Source of the DNA: Escherichia phage vB_EcoP_WFI101126
Length of the DNA: 64,000 bases
Reading direction: 5' to 3' (one strand)
Sequence record: NC_070991.1
Positions 7,406-64,000 of the stretch are shown here, one piece after another. How positions within the stretch are numbered: the first letter of the stretch is position 1; each line of letters opens with the position of its first letter. The notes under the pieces were generated by a model. That model saw only the letters and a program-made list of their open reading frames with translations, was not told where the DNA came from and ran no database searches. Position numbers and translations under genes: made by a program.

Positions 7406-8464
7406 ATGGCTAATCCAACTTTATTTGTATCGTATGACCAGAATGGTAAAAAACTTTCTTTTGCTAACTGGATTTCTGTTCTGTCCCCTCAGGATACCCC
7501 GTTCGTATCCATGACCGGTAAAGAGTCTATCAACCAGACTATCTTTAGCTGGCAGACCGATGCATTGGCAAGCGTTGACGCTAATAACGCACACGTCGAA
7601 GGCTCTCGTGCTGAAGACGGCGAAATGAAACCGACTGTTATCAAATCTAACGTTACTCAGATTCTGCGTAAGGTTGTTCGTGTTTCTGATACTGCTAACA
7701 CCACCGCTAACTATGGTCGTGGTCGTGAACTGATGTATCAGCTGGAGAAGAAAGGTAAAGAGATCAAACGTGATCTCGAGAAGATCCTTCTGTCCGGTCA
7801 GGCTCGTACCGACGTTCTGGCTGACCAGTACCTGACTAACTCTGCAACTGATCCTGATGTTGTTGGTCTGAACGACACCCATGCAGCTCGTAAGACTGGT
7901 GCTTTCCAGTTCCTGTGTGCTCACGGCGGTCTGTCTGGTGGTTTTGTTGACAAGACCAAAAATGGTCCTGCTGACCCGGATACTGGTGCAGTAACTGTTA
8001 AAGTTGCACAGAATGCTTCTAACCCGACCACTAACATTGGTTTCGACGAAGCTGATATCTTTGATATGACTCTGCAACTGTACACCGCTGGTTCTGAAGC
8101 AGATATCATCATGATTAACCCGGCTCATGCTAAGATCTTCGCTGGCCTGCAAGAAAATACTCAGGGTTCACGTAAGCGTATCTTTGAGAACACCAAGCAG
8201 TTCATCTACGAAGTTAACAGCATCACTGACCCGCTGGGCCAGAGCTACAAAATCATCGTTAACCGTTGGATGCCTACCGATGCAGTTTACTTCTTCCGTA
8301 GCGCTGACTGGACCCAGATGGTTCTGCGTGCTCCGAAACGTACTGAACTGGCTAAAGATGGTTCTTACGAGAAGTGGATGATTGAGATGGAAGTTGGTCT
8401 GCGTCACCGCAACCCGTACGCTTCCGGCGTTCTGTTCACTGCTGCGGGAAAGGCGGCGGCGTAA
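7406..8464 (+). CDS. major capsid protein
   Basis: 352 aa; position after scaffold; followed by Ig-like ORF and strong terminator. Confidence 0.8.
   Translation: MANPTLFVSYDQNGKKLSFANWISVLSPQDTPFVSMTGKESINQTIFSWQTDALASVDANNAHVEGSRAEDGEMKPTVIKSNVTQILRKVVRVSDTANTTANYGRGRELMYQLEKKGKEIKRDLEKILLSGQARTDVLADQYLTNSATDPDVVGLNDTHAARKTGAFQFLCAHGGLSGGFVDKTKNGPADPDTGAVTVKVAQNASNPTTNIGFDEADIFDMTLQLYTAGSEADIIMINPAHAKIFAGLQENTQGSRKRIFENTKQFIYEVNSITDPLGQSYKIIVNRWMPTDAVYFFRSADWTQMVLRAPKRTELAKDGSYEKWMIEMEVGLRHRNPYASGVLFTAAGKAAA
8446..8452 (+). promoter_or_regulatory. candidate -1 ribosomal slippery heptamer G_GGA_AAG in capsid frame
   Basis: GGGAAAG with codon phasing G|GGA|AAG, 13 codons before capsid stop; -1 frame open into the 8476..8988 ORF. 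Confidence 0.5.
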
Positions 8465-9089: not shown

Positions 9090-9842
9090 ATGGCAATGCC
9101 AGATGTTCAATACCCCATCAATACCTATGGGTGGCTAAAGAAGGCCGTGGCCCTCTGGGCAGATAGGGACGATGACGAATTTGTTAATCAAATTCCAAAC
9201 TTTATTAACTTTGCAGAGAAAGAGATTTATCGTAACTTACGTATCCCTCCTCTGGAAAAAGAAGTATATCTCAGTATTAAAAATGGAGTGGCTTTTATCC
9301 CTCCGGATTATTTACAAGCTCAGTGGATGATGAGAGCTAAAGATGGAGCAATATTCCAAGTAACTTCTCCAGAAGAGATAAGCTATCGTAAACAGCATGG
9401 AACAATTAACCCCTCTCACTGGAATAATCAACCTGTTAATTTTGCTCGTTTCGGAAGTCGTTTCTTGTTCTATCCACTGATTGATGCTGATACCCCTGTT
9501 TACCCTGAAGATGGAAGTCCTGCTATTCCAGCAGAGAACTCTGTAATTCTAAGCTATTATGCAGATCCTCCGGAGTTTCACGCAGACGAAGATACTAGTG
9601 CAATACTTACGATTGCTCCAGAACTTCTTCTATACTTTACCCTTAGGCATGCATGTCTTTTTGTTCAGGATGATAACGGTGTTCAAAAATGGTCTGCGTT
9701 AGGTAAGGCTATTCTTGATGAGATGGTTGAGCAAGATAAGAAACAGGAGTACTCAGGCTCTCCTATTGCGATACCTAATAATATGACCAGACTTCAGAGT
9801 AGCCTACCGGATATTTATGGAATACGTACCTCTAGAGTATAA
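9090..9842 (+). CDS. virion structural protein (possible head-tail adaptor)
   Basis: 250 aa; AAGGAGG Shine-Dalgarno; position between capsid and tailspike. Confidence 0.5.
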   Translation: MAMPDVQYPINTYGWLKKAVALWADRDDDEFVNQIPNFINFAEKEIYRNLRIPPLEKEVYLSIKNGVAFIPPDYLQAQWMMRAKDGAIFQVTSPEEISYRKQHGTINPSHWNNQPVNFARFGSRFLFYPLIDADTPVYPEDGSPAIPAENSVILSYYADPPEFHADEDTSAILTIAPELLLYFTLRHACLFVQDDNGVQKWSALGKAILDEMVEQDKKQEYSGSPIAIPNNMTRLQSSLPDIYGIRTSRV

Positions 9843-9851
9843 GGAGATTTT

Positions 9852-12800
9852 ATGATCAGTTACAACAACTCAGCACCTAATGCAGTTAATAACGTAGGTC
9901 AGTTTGGTGCTACAGAAGGCTCTATCGGTGCTTACAAATCAGCAGCTGAATATGCATCTGATTCCAAGTATTGGGCGATGCTTTCTCAAAAGAACTATAA
10001 CAACATTGGTGAGATTCTTAAAGAAGTAGAAAGACTTTATGCAGAAGGTAATTTATTAAAAGAAGATATTGAACAACTCAAATCTGATTTTGAAAACCAA
10101 AACCAAATACTTCTCGGACTCATTCAGCAAACCGGTGAAGCCATTGACAACACTAATACTGCTATTGGCGAAGCTAATGCAGCAACAGATCGAGCTAACC
10201 AAGCAGTGCAAGATGTTCTTGCTCAATTAGATAAGATTTCTAACATGTCTGTTGTTGCTACAACCCTTCCTCCGGGAACCCCTGCAACTGGGAGTTTTGA
10301 TAACAGTACAGGTGTTTTCTCTTTTGGTATCCCCGAAGGACAACCCGGTAAAGACGGCAAAGATGGAACGGACGGTACAATCTCTGATATTGGGGATGTT
10401 GCCATAAGCACCCCTGTGTCTGATGATTACGGATTCTTTGTGGATAAAGATGATGGTGGTTTGTATCGAACTCCGATGAGTGAGATCGCTAAGTTAGTTC
10501 CGGCAGTGACCAGTTTCAATGGTCGTACTGGTCCTGTTGTTCCAGCTGCTGGAGACTACACAGTAAGTCAAGTTACTGGCGCAGCTGCTTCTGGTGTTAA
10601 CAACGATATTAACCAGATTCGCGGGTTAACCACTGCCTTATCTGTAGCTCAGGGTGGTACAGGTGCTAAGAATGCAGATGACGCTAGAACTAACCTATCT
10701 GCAATGCTTGACTCTAAAACAGGGCTTGACGGAACAACAAATCTCAATGACTTAAATGGATTAAAAGCTGGGTTTTATTACCAACCTGCTTCTGCTAATG
10801 CAAAACCAGAACTTAACTACCCTACACAACTGGCAGGTTCTTTAGTAGTAGTCAAGACAGGTGCAGGTACAGGATATTCATGTAAGCAGGTTTATAGTTT
10901 ATACAACAACCCTAACGTAACCTACTCTCGTGTACTTAACGCCAGTGCAGGCCCAACCTCTCCTTGGTCTGAATGGGTAAGACATGTGGCCCTAAGTAGA
11001 GTAGAAGAGGGATCTTCCGCTACTTACATGTACTCCTCTTACGCTCCGGATGCTCCTAGACTTCAGGTTTGGACTAGTGGTTTGTGGGGGTGTCATAACG
11101 GTACTAACTGGGTTCCTTTGTCCTTAGCTCAAGGTGGCACTGGAGCAACATCAGCAGCTGGTGCTCGAGCTATTTTAAACTTGGATAGGTTTGTAGCAAC
11201 AGCATCAGAAACTCAGATGCTCTCCTCTTCTGGAGACAAGAAGGTTTTCATTAACAGTAATAATAACACATGGGGATGTTATGACATTACCAACTCTCGC
11301 TTTATCCCACTAGGGATCAATCAGGGAGGTACTGGAGCAACCACTGCTGATGCAGCTCGTATGTCTCTTGTTGCTGCTAAGAGTGGTGCTAACTCTGACA
11401 TAACCTCTATGACTAATGTGGTTAATTTCACTCAGTCTCCAACAATCCCCGATGCAGTGTCTTCTAATGAGCCTGTTGCTCTTGGGCAACTTTCCACAGA
11501 AACTGCCGCTTTGGATACGAAGATAACAGAAGCTAAGGATGCTGCTGCTGCTGCTAACACTAATGCTAATAGCAGAGTTCTCACTTCACAACTATCAGAT
11601 ACATCTGAAGTTGCTCAAGGGGACGCTTTAGTGGGGGTTATGGCTCCTTTTACTGGTGCTACTGCTCGTACTCAGCATGATAAAAACCTTGATGTGATCT
11701 CTATAGCTGACTTTGGTGGTGGTACAAACTGGTCAGATAACGGTCCAGCTCTTCAGAGAGCAATCACATATGCAGCTTCTGCATCTGGTAACAACCGTGG
11801 TATGGTTTATATCCCTCCGGGAGTGTGGAATTTCACTTCTGGCGTAACTGTTCCGGGTAACGTTTCTATTAAAGGGGCTGGGGTTGGTTCAACCCAATTA
11901 AAAATAAATTCTGCTAACTTAGTTTTATTTGATGTTGGTAACGGAACCAATAACCCGAACAACGTCAGTATCTCTGATTTACATGTTCTTGTAAGTTCCA
12001 CTTGCACAGCAAACCCTTTATTCCGTTTTAGAAATGGATATAATTGTGGTATTGATAACATCCGTGTTGATGGGCCTTGGTATGACCTTATCCACTTCCG
12101 TGGTGGTGCTGCTCAGTTCGTCTACCGAGTCTCGGATAGTATCCTAAACGGTACTTCAGCTAGCCGTCATACGATTACCATTGGTGAATCTTCATCAGAC
12201 GGTGTTGTTCAAGATGTTTTCTTAACAAACTTAGTCCTTGGTGGAAGAACTACCGGATACGGTGTTTATGAAAAATACTCTTCTGGAGTTTATGCGACTA
12301 ATGTTGATTCTCTCAACGTTAACGTAGGTTGGGCTTGGGAACCTGCTACTGGATGTTACTGTAAAGGAAGTTTCTACACTGCAATTCTTGGTGATACTAA
12401 CTCTACAGCTGGTCTTAGAATTAGACCTCAGGCTGGTACAACAGTTAATGACTTAACTTTCAATGGATGTTGGGTAAGTTCCGCTGGGTCTAACAGTTCT
12501 CATCATGGTTTGATCATTGATAGTTCTGCTGGTACTGTAGCAAACATTAGCTTTAATGGTTTAACTGCTGTGAACAACAAAGGTCATGGTGTCTACATTA
12601 ATGGATCTACTACTGGATACGGTTATGAGTTCACAAACCTTAGTGTCTCTAATAACAGTCAAGCTGGTGCTTCTCTGTGTAGTGGTATGAAAATTGTAGC
12701 CGGTTCTTCTCACATAAACATTTCTAATGGTCATGCGGGTGGTACTCTTGGTTTAGGTACAAACAACCAAGCCTATGGTATTGACGTTGAGGCTGGTACT

Positions 12801-47019: not shown

Positions 47020-47553
47020 TTACACACCTTTAGATGCAACTACACCTTCAGAGTTATTATAACGACCCTTCACTGCATAGGAGTGTTCCCCTGCATGAGA
47101 GTGCTCAAACATGACCATCTGACCAACACGCATACCAGCACGAACTCGTAAGCTATGATGCTTGGTTACGTTATGGAACTCAAATGTCAGCTTACTGCTG
47201 TTAAACCCTGCGTCTGCCCACCCGGCGTGGAGATGGTTCAAACCACAACGAGCCATAGACGAACGCAGAACAAACAGACTTGAGATGTTATCTGGAAGAT
47301 TAAACTCCTCCATAGAGTGAGCCAAGAAAAACTGACCCGGAGTGATAACCAAACCCTCTTCAGGAATCTTTACTTCTTTCCACTGAAGATTCTCTTTCGC
47401 ATCAATATCAACGATGCCATCAGCCTGTTCTTCAACAAGGATAGTATCACCAATACGGATATCCACACTAGCAGCGTTAACATACTTATGCTCCGCATCC
47501 AGATAGCCATTGTCAATTACATCGTGCAGTTCAACACTTCCTAGTAAACTCAT
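47020..47553 (-). CDS. dCTP deaminase / dUTPase-family enzyme
   Basis: ASVDIRIGD...HAGWADAGFNSSKLTFEFHN...RVGQMVMF matches dCTP deaminase/dUTPase trimer fold motifs. Confidence 0.7.
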   Translation of the reverse strand: MSLLGSVELHDVIDNGYLDAEHKYVNAASVDIRIGDTILVEEQADGIVDIDAKENLQWKEVKIPEEGLVITPGQFFLAHSMEEFNLPDNISSLFVLRSSMARCGLNHLHAGWADAGFNSSKLTFEFHNVTKHHSLRVRAGMRVGQMVMFEHSHAGEHSYAVKGRYNNSEGVVASKGV

Positions 47554-47562
47554 TCTTATTCC

Positions 47563-48873
47563 TTAGTTATTTGTTTCCATGTCAAAAGAGATTCCACGAC
47601 CCGCTTCATCGGCAAACCGATCATCGAGACTGTGACTGACAGTATCAGCAAGTTCTTCATGAGAGGGAATGTCAAGACTACCTACCACATCTTGAGCAGA
47701 AGCTTCATCAGTCCAGATAACACGAGAAGGGGCGTTGATATCACCAACAGCAAAACCCTGACCAGAGAACTGGTGACGGCTAACAGTCAAACCATTTGAT
47801 CGACTACGAGAAGGACTAGACATCCATCTCTCCATAGAATCACTTGTAATGCCAAGAGCTTCTTCAAAAGATGTTCTACGAGAAGAGCTTAGATTTCGTG
47901 CTTCATTTGCTCGGCGTCTTGTAGGGGCTACAAACACCCCTTCGATTGCGTTATGACGACTAGGCTCTTCTTCTCTACCAAGCAAATCACCACCCGTGTT
48001 AGTCGTTAAATTTGTCAACCCTTCAGACCAATACGCATAAATTTGACCAGACCCATGAAGACTTGACATAATCTGAATCTCTTCATAGGGGATTCCAAAG
48101 AATCGACTCATGTCACGGTTAACGCAATACTGAGCACTTGTTGTATCCTCAATAAGAGAAACCTGACCTAATCCATTAACCAGATGACTAACTGGCTGAG
48201 GTGTAGGAAGGTATCGAGTTTGGGCCATATATTGATATGCAACAGATGGAGCTGAGAATCTTAACACTTGTGAATTAGGCCACTTTTTGTGAACGTATCT
48301 GATTTCACGACTAGAAACAACCACAGGGCAAGGAGCGGTCATAGCTAAATACCCATGAGGGGTCATGAATAAGTTGTCAAGAGTCATCGCACCACGGCAC
48401 ATCATAGGAAAATTATCCAGAACCTCTTCAATAGAAGTAGGATAATTAAACATGAATTGGATACGAACCCCATTCCACTGAAACTCAATAATATCAGTGA
48501 ATGTTAATTGAGAACCCCCAGCATAGGACTCGTTTGTAGCCTCAGCAAGAAGAGATGAATACTCAATATCTTGTGACTCAAGCCATTCCTTCACGTTACT
48601 TTCAATTTCTCTTCCAAGAGCTTGCCAATGATCAGTTGATGTGAAAGTATTTTGGGTTCTTGGTGTTTGTCCTCTGACAATAAAGATATCAATGTCATGT
48701 GGAGCTGTGTTGTTAAGGACAGCATCACGAACAGCCCCACCAGTAATGATGGGACAGATACCGTCTGGAATCAAGTTGTTGTTAATCAACTGTTCAATGA
48801 AGTGACGACCAACAGTGATATCAGGTTGTTGAGCAACCTTATCTTCAATTCGGTTAATCGGGATAACAATCAT
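47563..48873 (-). CDS. pol-beta superfamily nucleotidyltransferase with CCA-adding-enzyme-like head motif
   Basis: ITGGAVRDAVLNNTAPHDIDIFIV (GGxVRD...DxD); remainder has no recognisable CCA body; start set to ATG 48873. Confidence 0.55.
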   Translation of the reverse strand: MIVIPINRIEDKVAQQPDITVGRHFIEQLINNNLIPDGICPIITGGAVRDAVLNNTAPHDIDIFIVRGQTPRTQNTFTSTDHWQALGREIESNVKEWLESQDIEYSSLLAEATNESYAGGSQLTFTDIIEFQWNGVRIQFMFNYPTSIEEVLDNFPMMCRGAMTLDNLFMTPHGYLAMTAPCPVVVSSREIRYVHKKWPNSQVLRFSAPSVAYQYMAQTRYLPTPQPVSHLVNGLGQVSLIEDTTSAQYCVNRDMSRFFGIPYEEIQIMSSLHGSGQIYAYWSEGLTNLTTNTGGDLLGREEEPSRHNAIEGVFVAPTRRRANEARNLSSSRRTSFEEALGITSDSMERWMSSPSRSRSNGLTVSRHQFSGQGFAVGDINAPSRVIWTDEASAQDVVGSLDIPSHEELADTVSHSLDDRFADEAGRGISFDMETNN

Positions 48874-48874
48874 T

Positions 48875-49432
48875 TTACATTTTCCAATATAATGAAGGTG
48901 GGTCGTAAGGGTCAAATCCTGTGAGTTCACACAAGAAAAGATAAACCTTAACAGTTAAGTTAACGTCCTGTTCACAATAAGTAAACATATCTTCAGTGAA
49001 AGCATCCCATGCTTCCTCTTGCTCGCCATAATCGCCCTTAAGTTCTCCTAAGAACTCACCCCACTGCTTCAAACCATGACCTCTTGGGCCACGTCTAGGG
49101 TCGCCTTTCGGATACTCAGGACTGTCACCAATACGGTCAGGTTTAAGATATCGACTAAGACATAAAGTGTCAAAGACGTTAAAACGATATTCAATTAGAT
49201 TAGGATACATTTTCTTCAGAGCACAAAGGTCGAAGTCAATAATATTATGACCCACGAGCACATCTGCTTCTGTCAGTTTACGAATCCCGTCTTCGATTTG
49301 GTGAGGCCGATAGCCCCACCTTTCACCAGTTTCAACATCGAAGATATAAATACACCATACTTTAGTTATGTCATCGTACAGTGCATTACTCTCGATATCG
49401 AATGCAAACACTTTCTTCTTTTTCTTTACCAC
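48875..49432 (-). CDS. DEDDy 3'-5' exonuclease, separate from polymerase
   Basis: [10 protein letters not shown] (Exo I), HNIIDFDL (Exo II), YCEQD (Exo III). Confidence 0.75.
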
Positions 49433-59619: not shown

Positions 59620-60813
59620 TTATTTTCCTAAAAATAATCCGCTCATAACACCATCCCACTCAGAGGACGGAATCACTGAATACTCCGAACTTTGGTCCAG
59701 AGTTCCACTACTAAATCGCTGAACAATGTTGTAGATGTTGAACAGGTCTTTAGCCTCGGCACGAATGCCGTAGATTAACCTGTTAGCTGTTCTCTCATTT
59801 TTAGACACGCGACGGGTAAAGTTAACCAAAAGATTATCACCTTTAAGTATCTCTGACCCATCTTTTACTAGATCGGGGTGCATCACTGGCAAGAACATTG
59901 AGTTGTTAACTCGCAATTCTGCTGTTTCGTCGTTCTCATAATGAATCCACTTAAAGTCTTCATCACGAAAGTGACCGCATCCATCTCTGTATGACTGTTG
60001 ACGCCAAGGCACTTGAAATGCTTCAGCGTATTTATCAGCCATGCCAACCGTAAATAGTGACGCTGGGAAAATACAAGCATCCCAATCGTTACCAACCAGA
60101 GTTGCTTTCGTTTCTCCCAAGAGGTTGGTGTAAGTGCTAACCATTCGTGAATAAACGTAAGCCTGAAGAATTGTCCAGCCTTCAACCAACCATTTATGAA
60201 GGAAGGTTTCAACTTGACTCTCTTCATCTTCACAATAGAAGGTTCGATCTAACATCAAATAGAACAGACAACGATCAGCAGGAACATTCTCAGTTGCTAC
60301 CCCCATAAAACCTTTCTCGTGCCAGCGTAAACAGGAGGGACGATCTTTGTCCACAAATGCTTCCATAGCTTCCAGTACAGCACGAGGTGTGGTTCGATGT
60401 TCAGGGTTTTTGTCGTTCCAACGTTCGATGTTATTTTTAAGCTCGCCTTCGTAATCAATAGCACCCCAACCTAAAGCTTCGGATACATGCTCTGCGTCAC
60501 GCCAACGTCTAAAACCTAACATCTTCATGTGAGTTCCGGAGTTCCAGATATGCTTGATTTTACACATATCCATCTCTCGGCTTAACAGGAACTCTTCCCC
60601 ATCAGCACTACGAACGTTAGCTTCTTCATGCCACACTCGAACGTGCATATTCCACCCATGAGTTGCCTCATACATGTTAGGGTCGAAGTATTCATCTTCG
60701 TCATCATCTTTATCAACGCCACCGTTATAGTTGCGAAGCTGAAGGAACCCATAACAAGGAGGGTTGACCGTTAAAACATTACCTTCAGTATCTTCTAATG
60801 TTACTGGAAACAT
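59620..60813 (-). CDS. hypothetical protein (397 aa), first large gene of the ligase operon
   Basis: ORF track. Confidence 0.45.
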   Translation of the reverse strand: MFPVTLEDTEGNVLTVNPPCYGFLQLRNYNGGVDKDDDEDEYFDPNMYEATHGWNMHVRVWHEEANVRSADGEEFLLSREMDMCKIKHIWNSGTHMKMLGFRRWRDAEHVSEALGWGAIDYEGELKNNIERWNDKNPEHRTTPRAVLEAMEAFVDKDRPSCLRWHEKGFMGVATENVPADRCLFYLMLDRTFYCEDEESQVETFLHKWLVEGWTILQAYVYSRMVSTYTNLLGETKATLVGNDWDACIFPASLFTVGMADKYAEAFQVPWRQQSYRDGCGHFRDEDFKWIHYENDETAELRVNNSMFLPVMHPDLVKDGSEILKGDNLLVNFTRRVSKNERTANRLIYGIRAEAKDLFNIYNIVQRFSSGTLDQSSEYSVIPSSEWDGVMSGLFLGK

Positions 60814-60824
60814 TATACCAACCT

Positions 60825-61187
60825 CTATTGGTTTTTAATCAACTCAATCGACTTACGGATATAAAGGATATCTCGGAAATTTCGATAGTTGTTCATAAAT
60901 TGATGCTTCTGGAAAGTAGCTTCTTCCAGAGCTTTCTTTGCTTCTGCGTAGTTTTTACGGGCAAGATGTACAACCCGCTCGGGTAACACATTTGCATGAC
61001 GGATGACATACTTGTGAGCTTTCATGTTGCTTTGCTCACGAGCAATCTTACCTTTAGCAACTTTGATACCATTTGCAATCCAAGCAAGTTCTTGCTCAAG
61101 CTCATCGTTGGACATTCCACCGAGATTTGATGCAACCTTGTTCAGAGTTTCAATATTAACGTTGCCCTTAATGGGACGTGTATTCAT
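60825..61187 (-). CDS. hypothetical coiled-coil protein (120 aa)
   Basis: ORF track. Confidence 0.45.
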   Translation of the reverse strand: MNTRPIKGNVNIETLNKVASNLGGMSNDELEQELAWIANGIKVAKGKIAREQSNMKAHKYVIRHANVLPERVVHLARKNYAEAKKALEEATFQKHQFMNNYRNFRDILYIRKSIELIKNQ

Positions 61188-61189
61188 AC

Positions 61190-61342
61190 TTACTCCTGTT
61201 GTTTACACTCGTCAATAACCCACTGATAAGTGGATTGCCCAGAAAAGAAACACTGAATAAATCCAGATGTTCTCTGCGTTACCAGTGCTAGTGCACAAAT
61301 CACTACCGCTGCTGCTAGCAGTTTTAAATCTAATTTAGACAT
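61190..61342 (-). CDS. small protein with signal-peptide-like N-terminus (50 aa; internal start of track ORF)
   Basis: MSKLDLKLLAAAVVICALALV; GAGG Shine-Dalgarno before ATG 61342. Confidence 0.35.
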   Translation of the reverse strand: MSKLDLKLLAAAVVICALALVTQRTSGFIQCFFSGQSTYQWVIDECKQQE

Positions 61343-61578
61343 ATTTCCTCTCATTGAATTTAAAAAAGGACTCTCCGAAAAGAGCCAAGCTTTAAATCCA
61401 AAAAAGATATTACCCAATATCTGTGGATAACCTGCTCTTAAAATATCTATCCGACGGATGTTCGAGGATTGTTCCTCTCCCTAGCATCGGCCCCATACGG
61501 GAAATATATTAAGATTAGGTTAGTTGAGTCAGAATAACTCACATAGCCCTCCGAAGAAGGCTATAGGCGTTACTACAA

Positions 61579-61794
61579 CTAAAAATCACTTGATTTTACA
61601 AAATCATCACTAAGGATTTCGTCAATCTCTTTGCTAGTCAAATCTTTCCTGAACCAGCAACAAGGAACATCCACCCATTGACCAGAGTTGTTTTCTACAG
61701 AGCATCTATTGCCTGTCTTACTCTTGCACTTATAGGTTTTCCCTTTGTCTAGACGATAGTGTATTCTGTAAACGATCGACACAAGTGCTATCAT
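61579..61794 (-). CDS. hypothetical Cys-containing protein (71 aa)
   Basis: ORF track. Confidence 0.4.
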   Translation of the reverse strand: MIALVSIVYRIHYRLDKGKTYKCKSKTGNRCSVENNSGQWVDVPCCWFRKDLTSKEIDEILSDDFVKSSDF

Positions 61795-62051
61795 TACTCT
61801 ATCCTAACTGAAGGGCAGTATTTCTCTTTCTTGCTGCGATACATCACAACAATCCAGTTTGAATCACGACGCTCTTTCTTACGTCGTTTCTTTTCAGCAC
61901 GAGTTTCATATGTGCTAGTTCGGTGGTCACGGTATATTCCACGAAGTTCATGAAATGCCCAACTACCACCAAACACTACACCAGCCAAAGCAGCCAAAGG
62001 TAAGGCACCAAGAGCAGGGGCAGTGAACCATGTCCACCAATTGAATGACAA
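61794..62051 (-). CDS. membrane protein (TTG start), possibly the 3' part of a frameshifted gene
   Basis: Hydrophobic N-terminus; overlaps 61976..62257 in a different frame around a T5 run. Confidence 0.4.
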   Translation of the reverse strand: MSFNWWTWFTAPALGALPLAALAGVVFGGSWAFHELRGIYRDHRTSTYETRAEKKRRKKERRDSNWIVVMYRSKKEKYCPSVRIE

Positions 62052-62257
62052 AAATTCTCATGTCCAAGGAGAGAGCCACCAATCATGGATAGTGCAGCGT
62101 ATACAATCCCTAACAGCAGCGTCAGTGCAATGAAGTGCATCACTGTACGCCAGAAGTATTCGCAAAAGTTAGTCATATTATCCCAATGAGGGTTGGGTAA
62201 ACCTGACATGGTTTTGTTTAACTTATGCAACCATCCGTTCTTGTTAATCTTGATCAT
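61976..62257 (-). CDS. membrane protein (93 aa)
   Basis: ORF track; hydrophobic segment HFIALTLLLGIVYAALSMIGG. Confidence 0.4.
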   Translation of the reverse strand: MIKINKNGWLHKLNKTMSGLPNPHWDNMTNFCEYFWRTVMHFIALTLLLGIVYAALSMIGGSLLGHENFCHSIGGHGSLPLLLVPYLWLLWLV

Positions 62258-62490
62258 TACTCACCTTTCTTGGCACGATCTTTGGCAGTTTTACCAGTGC
62301 GGATGCGATGGGAAACGTTAACCAGAGTACCACCATCAACTACGGTAACGCTCTTGTTTTTAGCCAGATCAAACACAGTCTTCTCTGTGCCACCCAAGCG
62401 AATTTGCTTAGGCTCACTGAAGGTTTGGGTTGATTTAGATTGGAACTGGAACGGTTGACGGATTGCATCGATTGCGCTTACTTTAGACAT
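62257..62490 (-). CDS. hypothetical protein (77 aa)
   Basis: ORF track. Confidence 0.45.
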   Translation of the reverse strand: MSKVSAIDAIRQPFQFQSKSTQTFSEPKQIRLGGTEKTVFDLAKNKSVTVVDGGTLVNVSHRIRTGKTAKDRAKKGE

Positions 62491-62724
62491 AGGGGAAATT
62501 CCTTAAAAAGTTATGGCTGCGTAGAGGGAATTCCCTACGCAAATTGGGACGCCCACAGAGAGGCGTCATAGTACTAAAAGGAGGAGAGAAGAGGGATTAT
62601 TTAGCTACCTTTTTCTGTCCATTTACGAACCAGATAATTGAACCGTCAGGCTGTCGTTGACCGAAGCCTTTTTGGTTAATCATATCGTCATAAGAATATG
62701 CTTTACGTCTCATTTGTTTTCCTA

Positions 62725-62937
62725 TTAACAGGCGTAGTTACGTAGGTATACATGCCGATCTCTCAGCACCTCACCAAGAAAAGATTTGTAATCTTCTGTT
62801 ATGCCAGAATAAAACTTCTCTTTAGCTTCTTCTTCGGACACTTTCCACAACTTAGAAAGTTGGTTGAACAAGATTTCCTCTGAGGAAAACAGTAGATAGG
62901 CATTCTGTATGAGTATGTCTTTCTCTTCTTGAGTCAT
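62725..62937 (-). CDS. hypothetical early protein (70 aa)
   Basis: ORF track. Confidence 0.4.
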   Translation of the reverse strand: MTQEEKDILIQNAYLLFSSEEILFNQLSKLWKVSEEEAKEKFYSGITEDYKSFLGEVLRDRHVYLRNYAC

Positions 62938-62946
62938 AGACCACCC

Positions 62947-63192
62947 TTACATTAGAGTTAAGATGATCTCTGCTTTGGCAAACTTCTCACCAACTTCAAG
63001 AGTGTCAGAAACAGGACGAGGTTCGCCTGTGCCTAAATTAACTGCTCTGCGATATCCACCAGATAGAGGCATCATCAAATAAATGACCTGACTGTCATCA
63101 TCTTTTAAAGTAAAGATGTCAGCGGTTGACAGATCTTTAACAAAGAGTTTCTTTTCTTCTTTGTTGTGAACCTTGATATGTATCGTGCTCAT
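62947..63192 (-). CDS. small early protein, possible member of paralog set
   Basis: ORF track; loose similarity to neighbours. Confidence 0.45.
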   Translation of the reverse strand: MSTIHIKVHNKEEKKLFVKDLSTADIFTLKDDDSQVIYLMMPLSGGYRRAVNLGTGEPRPVSDTLEVGEKFAKAEIILTLM

Positions 63193-63194
63193 AC

Positions 63195-63446
63195 CTACTC
63201 CTGAACCACAGACATACGAATCATCTCTACCTGATCATCAAGACTTTTAACAGATAGTACACCTGTAAAAAGGTTTACCACAGGAACCCAACCACTAGCT
63301 ATACGGATGTTACCAGAAGCATTTTCAACCCTCATATAATATTGAGGAGAAGCACTTCCGTTCTGAACTACGAAGGGGTTTCCGGGAATGATTGTTTCCA
63401 ATCGTACCGTATTATCCTTTTTCTTAGGGATGATTTTCATTAGCAA
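63195..63446 (-). CDS. small early protein, possible member of paralog set
   Basis: ORF track. Confidence 0.45.
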   Translation of the reverse strand: MLMKIIPKKKDNTVRLETIIPGNPFVVQNGSASPQYYMRVENASGNIRIASGWVPVVNLFTGVLSVKSLDDQVEMIRMSVVQE

Positions 63447-63515
63447 TCACTCACTAAAAGTTCTGCCGACACAGGAATAACTTGGCACCAGCTAGACGGT
63501 GCTGTTACGTTACCA

Positions 63516-63686
63516 TCAGATAGACGGAGAGAGTACTCGATCAGAGTTAACGGTTACATTAGGACTTTCAGATACAGTCCCTTTGACATAGAGAGTAGCA
63601 CTCTCGGGGAATTTAAATACTGCTCCGCTGGGAAGGGTGTTGAGATCAACCTTGGTCACTTCTTCTTTCTTGTGAGTAATCTTCAT
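63516..63686 (-). CDS. small early protein (56 aa), paralog of 63683..63937
   Basis: Hand-translated MKITHKKEEVTKVDLNTLPSGAVFKF...; ATGA overlap with upstream gene stop. Confidence 0.4.
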   Translation of the reverse strand: MKITHKKEEVTKVDLNTLPSGAVFKFPESATLYVKGTVSESPNVTVNSDRVLSPSI

Positions 63687-63937
63687 TTAGAATCCTTAAT
63701 AACGTTAGCTTCAACCTTAACAGGAATAACAGAGATGCCCTCAACGGGGCCACTTAAGTGTCCATCTTCCAGTCTGACACACACGACTCGATCTCGTGCA
63801 ACTTCTACCCAATTAGTAGATGCCGCAGTACAGACCATATGAATTGGACCGTTCTCTTCCAGCCGGAAGGTAGCGCCCTTCTTCAGAGTGTGGAGTTTCA
63901 CAGTCTTGATAGTTTTGTTCAATTCGTTAACTTTCAT
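63683..63937 (-). CDS. small early protein (84 aa)
   Basis: ORF track; MKVNELNKTIKTVKLHTLKKGATFRL similar to 63516..63686 product. Confidence 0.45.
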   Translation of the reverse strand: MKVNELNKTIKTVKLHTLKKGATFRLEENGPIHMVCTAASTNWVEVARDRVVCVRLEDGHLSGPVEGISVIPVKVEANVIKDSK

Positions 63938-64000
63938 ATTGATTCCTATTTAAGTTTCAGGCTAATATTAAGGTGCATACATGCCCTGTTCTGTACAGCA

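Follow-up and report, generated by a model that had tools for sequence, protein, structure and literature searches.

A tandem array of small, diverged paralogs with a predicted SH3-like fold in the early block of a Kuravirus-group Escherichia phage

Clusters of many small early open reading frames (ORFs) are found in several virulent phages, as in the host-takeover module of SPO1, the pre-early genes of T5 and the early ORFans of T4 and N4. In phiEco32, the block that holds gp95-gp97 has been described as an experimentally defined early class (PMC8948821, PMC9965538); in SU10, CDS 69-125 form the early class (PMC4281155); and gp82-122 of YF01 have been classed as early (PMC9965538). The sigma-70 early promoters of these phages lie at the far end of the early block (PMC8948821, PMC4281155, PMC9965538). 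Proteomics of a PEG-precipitated preparation of SU10 did not detect the products of the genes that correspond to those considered here (PMC4281155), and paralogs are mentioned neither in that paper nor in the study of YF01 (PMC4281155, PMC9965538). Early genes of this group are worth testing because phenotyping of the BASEL collection found that these phages resist restriction-modification (RM) systems without carrying any known inhibitor (PMC11990801). A prophage small RNA that limits Kuravirus infection has also been reported (PMC12803456) and has no bearing on the genes described below, of which the literature searched contains no study and for which it reports no function.

The DNA analysed, called the window in the following, is the 64,000-nucleotide stretch of Escherichia phage vB_EcoP_WFI101126 given in sequence record NC_070991.1. 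Close to its right edge lie four small ORFs, A to D (table 1), which a preliminary description, made from the letters alone, had presented as a cluster of early genes, at least two of them clearly paralogous. All four are present on the minus strand where that description placed them, save for the start of gene C: the ATG at 63440 is used in all relatives, instead of the TTG at 63446 offered by the ORF list. The values of dN/dS (Nei-Gojobori, orthologs from nine genomes) are 0.04 for A, 0.20 for B, 0.20 for C and 0.19 for D and, therefore, all four are real protein-coding genes under purifying selection. A purine-rich stretch resembling a Shine-Dalgarno sequence precedes each of them, the stop of A overlaps the start of B (ATGA) and only 2 nt separate C from D, such tight or overlapping junctions being packing for translational coupling.

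Table 1. Features of the array and places of the family in the early arm. Positions are those of the window, except where genes of phiEco32 are named.
Feature	Position	Strand	Remarks
Upstream gene, 3' end (gp99-like 'D5-like transcriptional regulator')	63946-64000	minus	cut by the window edge
Gene A	63683-63937	minus	84 aa; intact family member; PHROG 7832; AGGA 7 nt upstream
Gene B as present	63516-63686	minus	56-aa ORF: the 52 initial residues of an 82-aa member plus 4 frameshifted residues
Frameshift site in gene B	63527-63533		reads GAGAGAG on the plus strand; a CT repeat in the coding direction
Out-of-frame rest of gene B	63440-63529	minus	encodes LRLSDGNVTAPSSWCQVIPVSAELLVSDC followed by the stop; TAATG overlap with the start of gene C
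Gene C	63195-63440	minus	81 aa from ATG; PHROG 7431; ortholog of phiEco32 gp96 (95% identity)
Gene D	62947-63192	minus	81 aa; PHROG 12612; strong AGGAG upstream; ortholog of phiEco32 gp95 (56%)
First array	gp95-98 of phiEco32		after gp99; the array in the window
Middle copies	gp104/105 and gp109 of phiEco32		one or two copies at gp104/105
Second array	gp113-115/116 of phiEco32		

By megablast, 86 phage records, nearly all of them Escherichia phages, match positions 62400-64000. The closest match, Ptacy1532 (77,761 bp), is a phiEco32-like Kuravirus (Mktvariviridae, Gordonclarkvirinae) that shows 98.3% identity over the full length of this interval. The names of the matches had suggested an N4-like phage with hairpin early promoters, a reading that this taxonomy rules out. 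Furthermore, positions 47401-64000 of the window are collinear with Ptacy1532 at 98.2% identity, while positions 2-486 match the end of its record. Because of this collinearity and of the match to the record end, the window is identified as the opening 64 kb of a Kuravirus genome of about 77.7 kb, of which about 13.7 kb follows the right edge.

The four ORFs had been regarded as the first genes to be transcribed from the right end and, hence, as the start of the early block. This placement does not hold. A further gene on the same strand, the gp99-like one, reaches into the window with the 55 bases next to the right edge, which encode its C-terminus (ending in AVQNRACMHLNISLKLK before the stop), and about 14 kb of additional same-strand small genes lie upstream of the array in the 98%-identical Ptacy1532, some 30 such genes being found upstream in both Ptacy1532 and phiEco32. 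A promoter spacer is located, in Ptacy1532 coordinates, about 9-11 kb upstream of A, and a consensus scan of positions 60000-64000 returned 5 weak sigma-70-like sites against 8.5 expected from shuffles, so that promoter-like sites are not enriched there and none stands out inside the array. The array thus has the gp99-like gene, a stretch of early genes of about 13.7 kb and the sigma-70 early promoters upstream of it and lies in mid-operon, in the middle of the early block; that it seems to come first from the right end is due to the place where the window stops. That the genes are early stands on another footing: B, C and D are orthologs of gp97, gp96 and gp95 of phiEco32 (80%, 95% and 56% identity, respectively), in the same order after gp99, and early-class membership of the array is supported indirectly by synteny with phiEco32 and SU10. 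On the basis of the literature on these relatives, the host sigma-70 RNA polymerase would produce a long leftward early transcript that includes the array.

Gene B departs from this orderly picture. Its orthologs measure 79-82 aa, and overlap gene C through TAATG, in Ptacy1532 and in all other relatives examined, while in the window a dinucleotide repeat within B is one GA/CT unit (2 bp) shorter than in Ptacy1532; repair of the frameshift restores a protein of 82 aa. As the sequence stands, B appears to be knocked out by this slip of 2 bp. The break was seen in no other record, as tblastn with repaired B retrieved 50 records, each with one uninterrupted match. The alignment of 16.6 kb with Ptacy1532 contains just one other indel, a 1-bp loss in an A6 run near 62050, in a gene resembling the phiEco32 gp92 'membrane protein' gene (154 aa in relatives; window 61794-62257), which is split into the overlapping ORFs 61976-62257 and 61794-62051. 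Sequencing errors and recent inactivations would explain both frameshifts equally well. For B, we give an even chance to an error of sequencing or assembly, with the true phage carrying an intact 82-aa protein: the only two indels of a long alignment fall in a dinucleotide repeat and in an A6 homopolymer, which are both typical error sites, the remnant of B beyond the deletion is identical to Ptacy1532, and the break is absent from all other tblastn-matched records. However, the same repeat and A6 run are also natural slippage hot spots, and both deletions affect accessory early genes, in which loss is tolerated.

Whether the four proteins belong together was addressed with pairwise and with profile methods. 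A and B are clear paralogs on sequence comparison, as had been proposed. Even the 56-aa form of B aligns with A with a Smith-Waterman score of 71, where shuffles average 23.1 (sd 4.0; z=11.9; score reached in 0 of 2000 shuffles), and with repaired B the score rises to 121 (z=21.9), the corresponding BLASTP alignment extending over 76 ungapped residues at 34% identity (51 bits, E=2e-15). Default BLASTP finds no match between A and the 56-aa B, as seeding fails on a short pair that is 31% identical. For the looser resemblance claimed for C and D, pairwise Smith-Waterman comparison gave shuffle P values of 0.014 for A-C, 0.01 for B-C, about 0.10 for C-D and about 0.31 for A-D, so that on these scores alone C and D are not significant; it was with profiles that this part of the earlier proposal could be sustained.

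A local jackhmmer search over all ORFs of the window and of eight related early arms converged on 75 ORFs, all on the coding strand and coinciding with annotated small genes, with lengths of 56-114 aa from the earliest start, or 72-86 aa after removal of N-terminal extensions that are too long. By BLAST they fall into five clusters, namely AB, C, D, a gp98 type and a large 'upstream' group. Comparison of the cluster profiles by hhalign joins the upstream group to AB with a probability of 97.9% (E 6e-13), to D with 95.6% and to C with 94.6%, while the direct comparisons give 78.8% for AB-C, 66.5% for AB-D and 40.5% for C-D; the profile-profile check that had been proposed thus brings all four ORFs together through the upstream paralogs. 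Among PHROGs, A and B match phrog_7832 (E 1e-26 to 1e-28), C phrog_7431 (2e-31) and D phrog_12612 (2e-36), and these three are weakly bridged by phrog_8365 and phrog_6570, the former of which matches A, B, C and D weakly (1e-7, 7e-4, 6e-4 and 0.028, respectively).

For an independent hidden Markov model (HMM), 68 representatives of the family were taken that share below 40% identity with every member from the Kuravirus group, and the model was searched against 1458 ORFs. Its E-values were 2.3e-18 for A, 1.9e-15 for repaired B and 2.4e-8 for the truncated form, 6.8e-13 for C and 2.9e-6 for D; it recovered all 75 of the members and gave no match off the coding strand. Outside the 75-member set only two ORFs were matched, both within another paralog cluster and both probable extra members. 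These ORFs of about 72 aa belong to the second array (L001 21232-21450, minus; L008 4422-4640, plus; E~7e-4) and may be divergent members. Because this non-Kuravirus model matches all four ORFs, paralogy is confirmed and reaches C and D as well, and A to D are diverged tandem paralogs of one family. The opposite reading, namely that the likeness is one of chance or composition and that there is no family, could draw on the failure of default BLASTP to match A with the 56-aa B and on C-D and A-D scores that stay inside the shuffle range; it is refuted by the BLASTP match of A to repaired B, by the independent HMM and by the hhalign values of 95-98% through the upstream group, besides the structural matches that link paralogs of different subfamilies, and we regard its probability as practically negligible.

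Between 7 and 11 members occur per early-arm stretch examined, in the three places listed in table 1. In the entire 64-kb window the broad family HMM finds exactly four member ORFs, A-D, D being the most divergent of them; the other members of the family lie in the remaining ~13.7 kb of the genome. In the relatives the first array comprises 3-5 copies. C and D are present in nine of the nine genomes, while copies of the A, B and gp98 types are present in some phages and absent from others, the A type or the B type being missing from several relatives. The array occupies the same slot in phiEco32, SU10, Paul, IMEP8, EP335, MN05 and YW01, from the gp99-like regulator to a 38-aa gene, and its genes are annotated in all of them as hypothetical proteins. 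Unlike the phage considered here, phiEco32 carries a gp98-type copy in the place of A, and in none of these seven phages is B frameshifted.

Some neighbouring features and record names deserve mention. In the window, D is followed by a gene of 70 aa (62725-62937, minus strand), which lies outside the family and is found, among the nine genomes, only here and in Ptacy1532, the 38-aa gene directly following D in the others; its sequence looks helical, and its Pfam matches, HMG_box (E 0.009) among them, are weak and below threshold. A family member of 85 aa from phage EcoN5 (P0053) is labelled 'DNA helicase' in its record, which is implausible, as is the same label on phiEco32 gp116 (L002 9723-10019), which adjoins and overlaps a member ORF (L002_9497_9757); 'endolysin' is the name given to IMEP8 gp111 (L004 4513-4746) and to a 77-aa EcoN5 protein.

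Beyond this group of phages the family is large. When 1.84 billion cluster representatives were searched exhaustively with HMMER, 1022 were matched at E<=1e-3 and, among the 150 matches listed, most are proteins of 66-90 aa that are matched end to end, with a few two-domain fusions. A, C and D (81-84 aa) and repaired B (82 aa) have the length of this single domain, which is about 70-90 residues. The family motif reads MKI-x10-L..L..GD.F-x7-YMK-variable-cVNL.tG-x9-V.PV; F24 shows little or no variation in the family alignments, in which G21, G59 and V70 are conserved in at least 90%, while D lacks the first Gly of the motif, reading TADIF. A phage contig of 114 kb (L009) carries two members (8073-8336 and 10001-10237), a contig of 183 kb (L015) has two adjacent members in tandem (9758-9988 and 10001-10231), and in a T4-like contig a member is found beside the genes for RNA ligase 2 and gp23. 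A gene with a YonG_N domain lies near the members in both L015 and L009. Because the 183-kb and 114-kb contigs are unrelated and hold multiple copies, local duplication of the family is not peculiar to Kuravirus.

In Pfam, A-D gave no match at E<=1 except for HTH_22 with D (E=0.13, far below the family cut-off), and none of 99 family members had a match; profiles of KOW, EF-P domain I, Tudor and PWWP domains matched 0 of the 99 members at E<=0.01; NCBIfam and PADLOC, which covers defence systems, returned no match; the best hit of a profile search of the PDB had an E of 0.6; and all of the PHROGs that are matched bear the label 'unknown function'. In a word-indexed protein search A alone retrieved close orthologs only, and a 72-sequence alignment retrieved 14 unnamed proteins. 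With tblastn, the family consensus found no match in the phage collection, probably owing to low-complexity masking, and a real member found Kuravirus-group phages and one Vibrio phage only.

Several longer proteins returned by the searches were set aside. P0057 (RCC1 repeats), P0111 (NHL repeats) and P0058 (Ig-like repeats) are false positives that arise from the summation of repeats. Five multi-repeat proteins (P0094, P0122, P0132, P0084 and P0175; 387-2217 aa) may contain several copies of the domain but are not counted as established members, their single repeats scoring weakly and covering mostly the N-terminal half motif; this half motif (L..L..GD.F) is apparently repeated many times in them. 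P0132 (L010 8001-10040) is found in a large-phage contig beside genes for PARP, GT4-conflict, MT-A70, RlaP and ribosomal protein S21/L12, and P0175 (L012 10001-13435) lies next to a 2097-aa protein in a 131-kb contig.

Structure prediction, the other check that had been suggested, was carried out for A. With an alignment of 30 sequences the AlphaFold model was poor (pLDDT 60.6) and was not used; with 99 diverse sequences an all-beta model was obtained with a pLDDT of 89.5 and a pTM of 0.78, in which A is confidently predicted to be an SH3-like beta-barrel, small, five-stranded and superposable on known SH3-like domains. A Foldseek search of BFVD with this model finds other Kuravirus-subfamily paralogs (73-89 aa) at a probability of 1.00. 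The same probability, with TM values of 0.55-0.8, is obtained for proteins of N4 (gp21), PaP3 (ORF.65), LAMP, Cronus, Hera, Myduc, GAP32, TropicalSun and 7-11; these BFVD phage proteins of 70-90 aa are matched over nearly their full length at 11-30% identity and are uncharacterized. Against the PDB, SH3-like domains rank first, all with E above 0.08. The ribosomal L2 C-domain, domain I of EF-P/eIF5A (KOW-like), PWWP/Tudor domains, the SH3-like domains of DtxR and FeoA, VapX and the Tudor-like domains of UvrD and CarD show no sequence-profile relation to the family, and on an informal look neither the aromatic cage typical of Tudor/PWWP domains nor the hypusine/lysine loop of EF-P was seen in the array proteins. 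Unlike these known SH3-like domains, the barrel of the array is a free-standing protein with a conserved motif of its own.

Paralogs are 18-32% identical to each other and orthologs 56-95%, and because of this difference one scaffold with different surfaces is the arrangement that suggests itself. The residues conserved throughout the family are few (Gly, Phe, Tyr/Trp, Val and Pro) and of types that build turns and cores, the other positions differing between paralogs and being kept within orthologs, so that residue type and sequence identity point to a conserved core and a variable surface. The barrel would be held in shape by the Gly, Phe, Tyr and Val residues that are conserved, and the divergent remainder would give each copy a partner of its own, most likely a host protein such as a takeover target or a defence component. 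Each paralog may, thus, be a small soluble binding module. The absence of A-type or B-type copies from several relatives, and the broken state of B here, suggest that copies are dispensable, and the array may be an accessory, partly redundant toolkit, the content of which turns over between related phages. We consider it fairly probable that the locus is an early-transcribed tandem array of diverged SH3-like paralogs acting in this manner, each as a binding module and most likely on a host partner, and diversified early-expressed binding modules appear to be the most plausible description of these genes. The early position, the 7-11 paralogs, the turnover of copies, the one broken copy and the SH3-like fold fit the preliminary description's guess of host-takeover or anti-defence proteins; no characterized protein and no Pfam, NCBIfam, PADLOC or PDB match links A-D to a partner or a phenotype, and the four array genes are only a few of roughly fifty early genes.

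Two other readings, both of which we hold to be improbable, assign the proteins different partners. As barrels of the KOW, Tudor, L2 and EF-P types do, they might bind nucleic acid, with RNA, DNA or the ribosome as their target, and adjust transcription or translation, of the host or of the phage, at an early stage of infection. The predicted charge gives no family-wide hint, A and C being basic (pI 8.7 and 9.2) and B and D mildly acidic (pI 5.7 and 6.1), and the median pI of 5.7 across the family argues against a general role of this kind. The proteins might, instead, assist the machinery of the phage itself, for instance in the role of adaptors or chaperones of the phage sigma factor gp36, of gp79, of replication proteins or of the downstream amidoligase cluster, and not act on the host. 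The presence of C and D in 9/9 genomes, the 95% identity of C to phiEco32 gp96 and the position of the array directly after a putative regulator gene would suit such a task; however, the family also occurs in N4, PaP3, T4-like and jumbo phages, the transcription and replication systems of which are unrelated, close relatives differ in copy number, and in this genome B is broken with all else intact. A broader proposal can also be formulated, namely that the family is a phage 'binder scaffold', a duplicated and re-surfaced SH3-like barrel of which each copy would neutralize a different host factor, restriction and defence proteins included, with similar work done in N4-like, T4-like, PaP3-like and jumbo phages. 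In our judgement this proposal is rather unlikely.

GenBank already lists the products of these genes as hypothetical proteins, and PHROGs assigns them to families without a known function. What appears to be unreported in the literature searched is that they form one superfamily, that 7-11 copies are found per early-arm stretch examined in this phage group and that an SH3-like fold is combined with a very wide phage range. PHROGs 7832, 7431, 12612, 8365, 6570, 9955, 16423 and 10911 are kept separate in that resource, while the evidence collected here joins them into one superfamily. If this holds, several PHROGs and more than 1000 clusters would become one definable domain that merits a family entry, and misleading names, such as 'DNA helicase' and 'endolysin' on members of 77-85 aa, would be corrected. 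On the practical side, the array is to be placed in mid-block rather than first, with one copy either broken or mis-sequenced. It also offers a compact set of candidates for the unexplained defence resistance of Kuravirus-group phages, and a natural series of paralogs in which to study how a single small fold is adapted to a variety of targets.

The array is a larger description of a known kind, that of small early ORFan paralogs, and not a new kind of system. Like the clusters of SPO1, T5, T4 and N4, it consists of short, tightly packed genes of the sort that are first expressed by the host polymerase, are mostly ORFans and are often dispensable in the laboratory. Unlike those clusters, it belongs to an early region in which a good part of the small early genes comes from one fold family, with 7-11 members in each stretch examined.
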